From Escherichia coli (GTDB lineage Bacteria > Pseudomonadota > Gammaproteobacteria > Enterobacterales > Enterobacteriaceae), in NCBI RefSeq assembly GCF_024502345.1, contig NZ_JALDNN010000001.1: DNA of 64,000 nt; one strand, written 5' to 3'. Positions within the stretch are counted from its first letter, which is position 1, and each line of letters opens with the position of its first letter. Below, piece after piece: positions 58,408 through 58,985 of the stretch. Made by a program: the position numbers and the translations under genes. The notes beneath the pieces are model-generated. The model worked only from the letters and a program-made list of their open reading frames with translations. It did no database searches and had not been told where the DNA came from.

Positions 58408-58985
58408 GCCGGATGCGACGCTTGCCGGGTCCTATCCAACCTGGGGGATTGCACACGTAGGGCGGATAAGGCGTTCACGCCGCATCCGCCAGTGGCGCGG
58501 TGCAGATGCCGGATGCGACGCTTGCCGGGTCCTATCCGACCTGGGGGATTGCACACGTAGGGCGGATAAGGCGTTCACGCCGCATCCGCCGGCGCGGTGC
58601 AGATGCCGGATGCGACGCTTGTCGCGTCTTATCCAGCCTACGGGAACGAACATGTAGGGCGGATAAGGCGTTCACGCCGCATCCGCCAGTGGCGCGGTGC
58701 AGATGCCGGATGCGACGCTTGTCGCGTCTTATCCAGCCTACGGGAACGAACATGTAGGGCGGATAAGGCGTTCACGCCGCATCCGCCGGCGCGGTGCAGA
58801 TGCCGGATGCGACGCTTGTCGCGTCTTATCCGGCCTACGGGAACGAACATGTAGGGCGGATAAGGCGTTCACGCCGCATCCGCCAGTGGCGCGGTGCAGA
58901 TGCCGGATGCGACGCTTGTCGCGTCTTATCCAGCCTACGGGAACGAACATGTAGGGCGGATAAGGCGTTTACGCCGCATCCGCCA
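58408..58985. repeat. BIME array: six tandem ~97-100-bp units, each a pair of inverted REP palindromic units
   Basis: Unit gccggatgcgacgcttgtcgcgtcttatccagcctacgggaacgaacatgtagggcggataaggcgttcacgccgcatccgccagtggcgcggtgcagat repeated six times with minor variants. Confidence 0.85.

Follow-up and report, generated by a model that had tools for sequence, protein, structure and literature searches.

The ygjK-fadH spacer holds a six-unit REP array

This analysis concerns the spacer between the genes ygjK and fadH in a 64,000-nucleotide stretch of Escherichia coli DNA (the window), which is occupied by a large bacterial interspersed mosaic element (BIME), that is, an array of repetitive extragenic palindromes (REPs). 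The spacer is 719 bp long in the window, and the array is extragenic, with the stop codon of ygjK (58997) on one side and the start codon of fadH (58277) on the other. The genes ygjJ, ygjK and fadH are all on the minus strand; rlmG and ygjJ lie outside the flanking pair, and RefSeq annotation at matching E. coli loci agrees with the fadH/ygjK flanks. A preliminary description of this DNA had proposed six tandem units here, each with two REP palindromes in inverted orientation. Tandem Repeats Finder reported a single tandem array at 58408-58986, with a period of 100, 5.8 copies, 94% matches and a score of 955; a period of 197 (2.9 copies, 0% indels) was given as an alternative description of the same array. 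When the sequence was split on the unit start, units began at 58408, 58508, 58605, 58705, 58802 and 58902, with lengths of 100, 97, 100, 97 and 100 nucleotides (nt) for units 1-5, and unit 6 had no tail linker. Each unit comprises, in order on the plus strand, a 37-nt Z2 REP (minus strand), a 12-nt linker, a 34-nt Y REP (plus strand) and a tail linker. The 12-nt linker joins the GTAG/CTAC heads of the Z2 and Y REPs in all units. The tail-to-tail linkers alternate 17, 14, 17, 14, 17 nt, the 17-nt form being AGTGGCGCGGTGCAGAT and the 14-nt form the same sequence minus AGT. Repeat finding, unit splitting and REP typing all bear out six REP-pair units between fadH and ygjK, and REP typing confirms the two inverted palindromes per unit. 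The features are listed below.

58408..58985, no strand: BIME-2 array, six tandem units with 12 REPs (Tandem Repeats Finder, unit table, REP typing)
58408..58444, minus strand: unit 1 Z2 REP, degenerate, with CCAG for GTAG and a weak inner stem (-11.4 kcal/mol); equivalent to the greater part of the K-12 probe published as 'fadH CRP site 1'
58445..58456, no strand: unit 1 head-to-head linker, 12 nt, GGGATTGCACAC, V type
58457..58490, plus strand: unit 1 Y REP, which starts with GTAG, folds at -19.5 kcal/mol and matches the crystallised K-12 y REP at 30 of 32 positions
58491..58507, no strand: unit 1 tail-to-tail linker, 17 nt, AGTGGCGCGGTGCAGAT
58508..58544, minus strand: unit 2 Z2 REP, degenerate, with CCAG for GTAG, -13.4 kcal/mol
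58545..58556, no strand: unit 2 head-to-head linker, 12 nt, V type
58557..58590, plus strand: unit 2 Y REP
58591..58604, no strand: unit 2 tail-to-tail linker, 14 nt, GGCGCGGTGCAGAT, which is the 17-nt form without AGT
58605..58641, minus strand: unit 3 Z2 REP, canonical, 37 nt with GTAG, -19.7 kcal/mol, identical to REP325 Z2 at 33 of 38 positions
58642..58653, no strand: unit 3 head-to-head linker, 12 nt, GGGAACGAACAT, C type
58654..58687, plus strand: unit 3 Y REP
58688..58704, no strand: unit 3 tail-to-tail linker, 17 nt
58705..58741, minus strand: unit 4 Z2 REP, canonical
58742..58753, no strand: unit 4 head-to-head linker, 12 nt, C type
58754..58787, plus strand: unit 4 Y REP
58788..58801, no strand: unit 4 tail-to-tail linker, 14 nt
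58802..58838, minus strand: unit 5 Z2 REP, canonical, -21.9 kcal/mol
58839..58850, no strand: unit 5 head-to-head linker, 12 nt, C type
58851..58884, plus strand: unit 5 Y REP
58885..58901, no strand: unit 5 tail-to-tail linker, 17 nt
58902..58938, minus strand: unit 6 Z2 REP, canonical
58939..58950, no strand: unit 6 head-to-head linker, 12 nt, C type
58951..58984, plus strand: unit 6 Y REP, adjoining ygjK and forming the first hairpin on the ygjK transcript; its TTTA loop marks the terminal unit in most alleles
58985..58996, minus strand: 12 nt that separate the stop codon of ygjK (TAA, 58997-58999) from the first REP stem
58278..58407, minus strand: unique 130-nt fadH promoter/leader segment, from the array to the fadH ATG
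56259..58277, minus strand: fadH (2,4-dienoyl-CoA reductase), downstream of the array (open reading frame and family calls)
58997..61348, minus strand: ygjK (alpha-glucosidase / glycoside hydrolase), upstream of the array, which its 3' untranslated region (UTR) would hold (open reading frame and family calls)

We conclude that this stretch is a genuine, ordinary E. coli-type BIME-2, with 12 REP hairpins in six tandem units of ~100 bp; it is out of the ordinary solely in its unit number, which exceeds that of every complete E. coli genome inspected. It accounts for 12 of the 18 REPs counted in the window; a fuzzy REP census gave 17, the degenerate Z2 REP of unit 1 having escaped it, and the total was set at 18. 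Both pairs of sequence variants named in the preliminary description are present: units 1-2 have CTTGCCGGGTCCTATCC where units 3-6 have CTTGTCGCGTCTTATCC, and units 1, 3 and 5 have GCCAGTGGCGCGG where units 2 and 4 have GCCGGCGCGG. Its wording 'near-identical' fits two-unit blocks 3-4 and 5-6, which differ at 3 of 184 positions, but fits less well for units 1-2 as compared with units 3-6, since blocks 1-2 and 3-4 differ at 21 of 197 positions. On alignment the palindromes stay Y and Z2 REPs; the contrary outcome was looked for and not found.

The array belongs to the BIME-2 class

REPs were typed against the Y and Z2 sequences of REP325 of E. coli K-12, which consists of 12 palindromic units (PUs) with Z2 and Y alternating, and against the y REP crystallised with TnpA_REP. 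The six 34-nt Y REPs are identical to REP325 Y at 31-32 of 35 positions and to the crystallised y REP at 30-31 of 32. The six 37-nt Z2 REPs match REP325 Z2 at 33-34 of 38 positions in units 3-6 and at 28-29 of 38 in units 1-2, and all six are nearer to REP325 Z2 than to Y. A 5' GTAG is found on 10 of the 12 REPs, the Z2 REPs of units 1 and 2 having CCAG. All REPs fold into a bulged hairpin of -19.5 to -21.9 kcal/mol, except the Z2 REPs of units 1-2.

Two classes of BIME have been distinguished: BIME-1, a single-copy z1 + y pair with a long L linker that frequently includes an IHF site (Ton-Hoang et al., PMC3333891), and BIME-2, in which z2 + y pairs are present in multiple tandem copies with short linkers (PMC3333891). 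The y and z2 REPs are 35 and 37 nt long including GTAG. Every sequence-level feature of BIME-2 is found at the ygjK-fadH locus: Y plus Z2 REPs in alternation, short linkers, tandem and extragenic arrangement, and GTAG. BIME-1 or RIB-RIP elements are similar in consisting of an inverted REP pair in an extragenic 3' position, but they are single-copy, with a Z1 REP and a long L linker with an IHF site, none of which the array has. Pseudomonas REPINs and RAYT-associated REP doublets likewise share inverted REP pairs, a conserved 5' GTAG and an association with the Y1 HUH transposase family, but REPINs are mostly dispersed doublets, whereas the ygjK-fadH element is a tandem array at one locus whose alleles differ by whole units. 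Its 12 PUs equal the maximum quoted for annotated K-12 REP elements.

Binding of both gyrase and IHF had been attributed to such arrays. Binding of DNA gyrase is documented for the BIME-2 class (PMC2817692), and later papers credit gyrase binding and cleavage to Espeli & Boccard 1997. IHF is described as binding BIME-1, at the long L linker, and not BIME-2 (PMC3333891; PMC2817692). We found no match to the IHF consensus WATCAANNNNTTR at ≤1 mismatch in the 578-bp array, where 0.6 would be expected from the window background. A BIME-1-like Z1/Y pair elsewhere in the window (38517-38613, 31-nt linker) has IHF-like sites in its linker at one mismatch; the strict consensus missed this control pair too, and the control works only at ≤1 mismatch. 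The absence of an IHF site from the array is thus a consensus-level argument rather than proof. With Z1 REP, long L linker and IHF consensus all missing from the array, the claim of IHF binding does not apply to it; this attribute belongs to another BIME family. A second REP pair elsewhere in the window is a Z2/Y pair with a 26-nt linker (34304-34406).

Unit number at the locus varies between strains

How many tandem BIMEs a locus holds is known to vary from strain to strain (PMC3333891). Of 5,426 complete E. coli genomes, 5,420 were matched by a query that consisted of the two spacer flanks alone. The spacer spans fall in discrete classes, and one representative of each class was read.

0 units: strain 729_xx_1_3_yolk, with an unrelated hairpin of 10-bp stem in place of the BIME
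1 unit: E138
2 units: SW071614
3 units: K-12, 425-bp spacer
4 units: O157:H7 and FDAARGOS_943
5 units: ET350, the largest among the 60 best matches

Comparison of unit number across strains, which had been suggested as a check, gave a range of 0 to 5 units for complete E. coli genomes. Among 108 genomes taken as two evenly spaced samples of 57 and 51, alleles of 0, 1, 2, 3 and 4 units were found in 11, 27, 29, 31 and 10 genomes, respectively, and none had five units or more. No allele of six units was found among the complete E. coli genomes inspected. Lowering the piece-joining limit from 930 to 560 bp gave 262 versus 247 split records, with no rise; this comparison gave no sign of alleles of at least six units but is suggestive only, ~550 genomes having matched just one 60-nt flank. 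The split-record (two-place) class consists of insertion alleles. Hence, the six units in the window are the largest allele that we found with E. coli-type units. The best identity to the window among the 5,426 complete genomes was 98.6% over 860 nt of flank and 98.0% over the rlmG-fadH segment, and the strain of the window is not one of them. This suggests that the window lineage lies outside this genome set, for example in Shigella or in an Escherichia lineage that has yet to be sampled.

The same-locus BIME-2 of K-12 MG1655 has the same flanks, the same left and right junctions, and the same alternation and orientation of Y and Z2. The foot of the Y stem, GGCGGAT...ATCCGCC, is locus-specific and common to K-12 and the window. 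The two alleles differ in size (three units in a 425-bp spacer in K-12, six in a 719-bp spacer in the window) and in the proximal Z2 REP, which begins GTAA... in K-12 and CCAG... in the window. Among the alleles read, two 97-nt units, with the 14-nt tail linker, are found only in the window; FDAARGOS_943 has one. At this locus NC_000913.3 has no curated REP annotation, only coding sequences.

Two unit types, V (with a Z2 REP lacking GTAG) and C (canonical), recur within E. coli, and units of each type are 100% identical between strains, so that alleles differ by gain and loss of the same modules. The C type, with GTAG on both REPs, is present in up to four copies per allele, and the V type in only one or two. 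Strains would thus change by gain and loss of two unit types, one unit (~100 bp) per step. Copy number probably changes by unequal recombination. The 3 differences in 184 positions between blocks 3-4 and 5-6, with the strict 17/14 alternation of linkers, are consistent with a 197-bp two-unit duplication as the latest step in the window, and such a duplication would be consistent with either unequal recombination or replication slippage.

In the zero-unit allele of 729_xx_1_3_yolk (L008:715-775), the hairpin is ATGCCGGACG...CGTCCGGCAT, and the 84-nt segment folds at -24.9 kcal/mol (z = -2.4). The shared flanks begin again at ...TACGCCCG and AAATTACTGCTTA; hence, this allele is a replacement and not a simple empty site. 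UM146 and avian pathogenic E. coli (APEC) strains are also zero-unit, as judged by span.

The locus in other Escherichia species

An exact scan with a 32-nt flank word identified the locus in representatives of three other Escherichia species. E. whittamii (L011) has three units, with one linker 8 nt longer; Tandem Repeats Finder reported no array at this locus, though three can be made out by eye. In Escherichia sp. E1V33 the unit is present in 3.8 copies. At the orthologous locus (L013:4769-5350), Escherichia sp. MOD1-EC7003 carries an array of its own, made up of six 99-nt units, all of which share a private compensated variant of the Y stem, GGTGGAT...ATCCACC, where E. coli here has GGCGGAT...ATCCGCC; the canonical form genome-wide is GCCGGAT...ATCCGGC. 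Likeness between units in MOD1-EC7003 is 0.944 within the array versus 0.857 to units of other strains, indicating local amplification or homogenisation.

Insertions at the locus

IS1397 inserts specifically into the palindromic units of BIMEs, according to the title of a reference in PMC3333891. In BH100, a strain other than that of the window, an annotated IS1397-family element (L009:4430-5880) follows GCCGGATGCGACGCTTG, in the loop of the fadH-proximal Z2 REP, and the sequence from ygjK to part of ebgA is gone beside it. About 250 complete E. coli genomes gave split matches, and those sampled (GON1437 and WP2-W18-ESBL-10) carry a ~2-kb insertion in a one-unit BIME, placed between its Z2 and Y halves (L015:1500-3460; L003:2179-3720). 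This insertion encodes a 513-amino-acid hypothetical protein, WP_001551682.1, for which Pfam, PADLOC and NCBIfam gave no match. These alleles support a recombination and insertion hot spot at the ygjK-fadH locus. The preliminary description had suggested that such arrays can act as recombination hot spots, and this locus fits that suggestion, with 0-6 units, an IS1397 insertion with an adjacent deletion, and ~250 genomes with a ~2-kb insertion.

BIME-2 arrays, their Y/Z2 make-up, their copy-number variation between strains and their targeting by IS1397 have all been published already. The element is therefore known in kind, and six units simply mark the upper end of a type of copy-number variation that is itself known.

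A candidate role in the ygjK 3' UTR

On the minus strand, which is sense for ygjK, the array folds at -315.6 kcal/mol, with z = -9.7 relative to shuffled sequences, a z-score that excludes a chance origin. The Y hairpin that comes first on the ygjK transcript has a folding energy of -21.9 kcal/mol (z = -3.1). Two pairs of the Y stem show compensatory double changes across loci and lineages, with 99% of cells paired, in an alignment of nine hand-picked Y sequences. The ygjK TAA is 12 nt from the first Y stem, and the fadH ATG is 130 nt beyond the other end of the array.

The best experimental model for termination and stabilisation by such elements is REP325, a 12-hairpin BIME-2 between tandem genes. 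By analogy, transcription out of ygjK would copy the array as a chain of stable hairpins, which may partly halt RNA polymerase in a Rho-assisted, non-intrinsic manner; little read-through would then get to the fadH promoter, and fadH would be shielded. Exonucleases that degrade RNA from 3' to 5' would be stopped at the hairpins, and ygjK mRNA would be protected. We infer that the 3'-UTR hairpin array attenuates read-through into fadH and blocks 3' exonucleases. The mRNA-stabiliser role named in the preliminary description is plausible from the 3'-UTR position, as judged from other REPs. At the DNA level, the array would belong to a class bound and cut by DNA gyrase. Translation can be down-regulated by a REP that follows the stop codon by less than 16 nt (Liang, Rudd & Deutscher 2015, as cited in PMC12306157). 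This mode of action would entail ribosome stalling, tmRNA tagging and cleavage of the mRNA at the stop codon. The distance of 12 nt at ygjK falls within this range, so that the published rule for damping by REPs would cover the first hairpin.

We also looked for an intrinsic terminator and found no U-run after any REP hairpin. The only terminator-like match nearby is a weak 5-pair hairpin at 58413-58396 (minus strand; z = -1.06), followed by a T-run that is part of the CRP-site flank. A Rho-independent terminator was therefore rejected: no REP hairpin was flagged, and the sole nearby match folds no better than shuffled sequences.

Overall, the best explanation of this locus, and in our judgement a very probable one, is a non-coding BIME-2 array of six Y and six Z2 REPs that acts through its hairpins and changes in size by gain and loss of units. 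Several points weigh against it. REP effects are context-dependent, and terminal REPs are not generally tied to longer mRNA half-lives (REP325 preprint). The array is inverted relative to transcription as compared with REP325, so the analogy is inexact, and the REP hairpins, lacking a U-run, include no intrinsic terminator. Strains with 0 units exist, with an unrelated hairpin instead; therefore, the array is dispensable. Finally, the length of the six-unit array is read from the window assembly sequence alone.

Alternative explanations

The array might be a neutral or selfish repeat with no selected function, its size changing by tandem recombination and any effects on ygjK and fadH being incidental. 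We regard this as a possibility, if a somewhat doubtful one. Unit number varies between 0 and 6 and is not fixed at any value, as seen in the distribution among the 108 sampled genomes; a 0-unit allele exists; 2 of the 12 REPs are decaying, with GTAG lost and weak stems; and the locus tolerates both IS1397 and the 2-kb insertions. However, E. whittamii, E1V33, MOD1-EC7003 and most E. coli have retained a BIME that has the same boundaries, and pairing in the Y stem has been preserved through compensatory changes. Moreover, the literature reports that REPs lying between tandem genes are correlated, across the genome, with expression biased towards the upstream gene.

Alternatively, growth and shrinkage of the array may be driven by the REP-associated tyrosine transposase TnpA_REP (RAYT, the yafM gene), in which case the array would be an active non-autonomous mobile element and not a passive substrate for recombination. 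The GTAG needed by TnpA_REP for cleavage is kept in 10 of the 12 REPs, and the most-multiplied unit type, C, has GTAG on both REPs, with V, whose Z2 lacks it, present only once or twice. In addition, TnpA_REP recombines BIME fragments in vitro, which the authors tie to copy-number variation (PMC3333891). Nonetheless, V-type units are also duplicated in the window, and homologous unequal exchange would be expected to give just such steps of exactly one or two whole units, with units that are 100% identical from strain to strain. The literature also describes REP325 as stable on plasmids, mobility of BIMEs in vivo as unproven, and TnpA_REP as monomeric, with no obvious route to BIME excision. 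We consider a TnpA_REP-driven process unlikely.

A third alternative concerns the fadH-proximal end of the array, which could be part of the fadH promoter, with its first Z2 REP serving as a CRP-cyclic AMP site that activates fadH together with the adjacent site. The text of PMC3460868 describes the fadH promoter as being under FadR/ArcA/CRP control, and the probes for fadH-CRP-site1 and site 2 used there in electrophoretic mobility shift assays are both reported to bind CRP-cyclic AMP (Feng & Cronan 2012, PMC3460868). We found that the site1 probe maps exactly to the K-12 fadH-proximal Z2 REP plus 11 nt of flank (L001 1490-1537), and that the site 2 probe is the flank abutting site 1 in K-12. 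The site 2 equivalent in the window (58358-58402) is identical at 44 of 45 positions, and a CRP-like site, TGTGATGGGATTCAAA, is kept at 58371-58386, in the unique 130-nt segment. In contrast, the site-1 equivalent (58397-58444) diverges: its first 6 nt bear no relation to the probe, and there are 6 differences in the 42 other aligned positions. We detected no CRP-like 16-mer at ≤3 mismatches within the REP, and, as stated in a passage of PMC3460868, just six base pairs are conserved among the sites. Furthermore, a CRP site would cover one REP at most, not twelve, and the REP is wholly missing in 0-unit strains. We therefore think it quite unlikely that the array end works as a CRP site. That the published fadH 'CRP site 1' is a REP sequence calls for caution about specificity. 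A genome has hundreds of REP sequences; hence, the specificity of site 1 deserves a control.

A more far-reaching idea is that unit number (0-6) acts as a heritable, stepwise dial on ygjK transcription and mRNA survival and on read-through or supercoiling at the CRP-dependent fadH promoter, with the proximal REP co-opted as a CRP site and the six-unit alleles of this strain and MOD1-EC7003 selected rather than reached by drift. We offer this as speculation with little chance of being correct. The ygjK-fadH spacer is a natural allelic series, with 0-6 units plus insertion alleles, that is suited to testing whether REP number tunes the neighbouring genes.

It is very improbable that the units are genes for naRNA4-like nucleoid-associated small RNAs (Rfam RF02564), which would be discrete transcripts that bind HU. 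Five plus-strand matches score 60.0-74.2 bits, above the gathering score of 59.5, but the RF02564 model is merely a Y hairpin, a linker and a Z2 hairpin, and would match any such BIME-2 pair. The above-threshold matches are antisense to ygjK and fadH, and those in the sense direction (minus strand) reach 43-54 bits, below the gathering score. In contrast, the RF02564 matches of REP325 (95-111 bits) are sense to the flanking genes yjdM and yjdN; the array's above-threshold matches do not share a strand with its flanking genes. Furthermore, we found no sigma-70-like promoter in 58100-59200. REP325, which lies in the yjdM-yjdN spacer of K-12 and gives rise to naRNA4, resembles the ygjK-fadH array in its twelve alternating Y/Z2 REPs, ~100-bp units, co-oriented flanking genes and RF02564 matches. 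However, the linkers of REP325 are 17 nt head-to-head and 11 nt tail-to-tail, as opposed to 12 and 14/17 nt; the foot of its Z2 stem is TGAT...ATCA and not GGAT...ATCC; and its RF02564 scores are 95-111 bits as compared with 60-74 bits. naRNA4 genes were accordingly rejected, the matches being on the wrong strand and the model recognising a generic Y-Z2 pair shape.

We give essentially no credence to a coding function: open reading frames (ORFs) of 70-100 amino acids are listed on both strands at 58329-59096, but they recur once per unit on both strands, mostly with GTG starts, due to stop-free frames in the unit; the 197-nt two-unit period is not divisible by 3; ORF number shifts with unit number between strains; and RefSeq annotates no gene in the array at any locus inspected, so the coding reading was rejected and the ORFs regarded as repeat artefacts. 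The region is best annotated as a repeat and not as ORFs or naRNA4 genes. Repeat-borne ORFs at 58329-59096 are a trap for gene callers.

Observations on the neighbouring fadH-rlmG spacer

The fadH-rlmG spacer (56149-56258) contains a single Y-like REP at 56164-56197. The higB-higA pair, which K-12 has between fadH and rlmG, is absent from this position in the window. The higBA pair is polymorphic: the five best-matching genomes are without it, and many others have a span that is ~620 bp longer.

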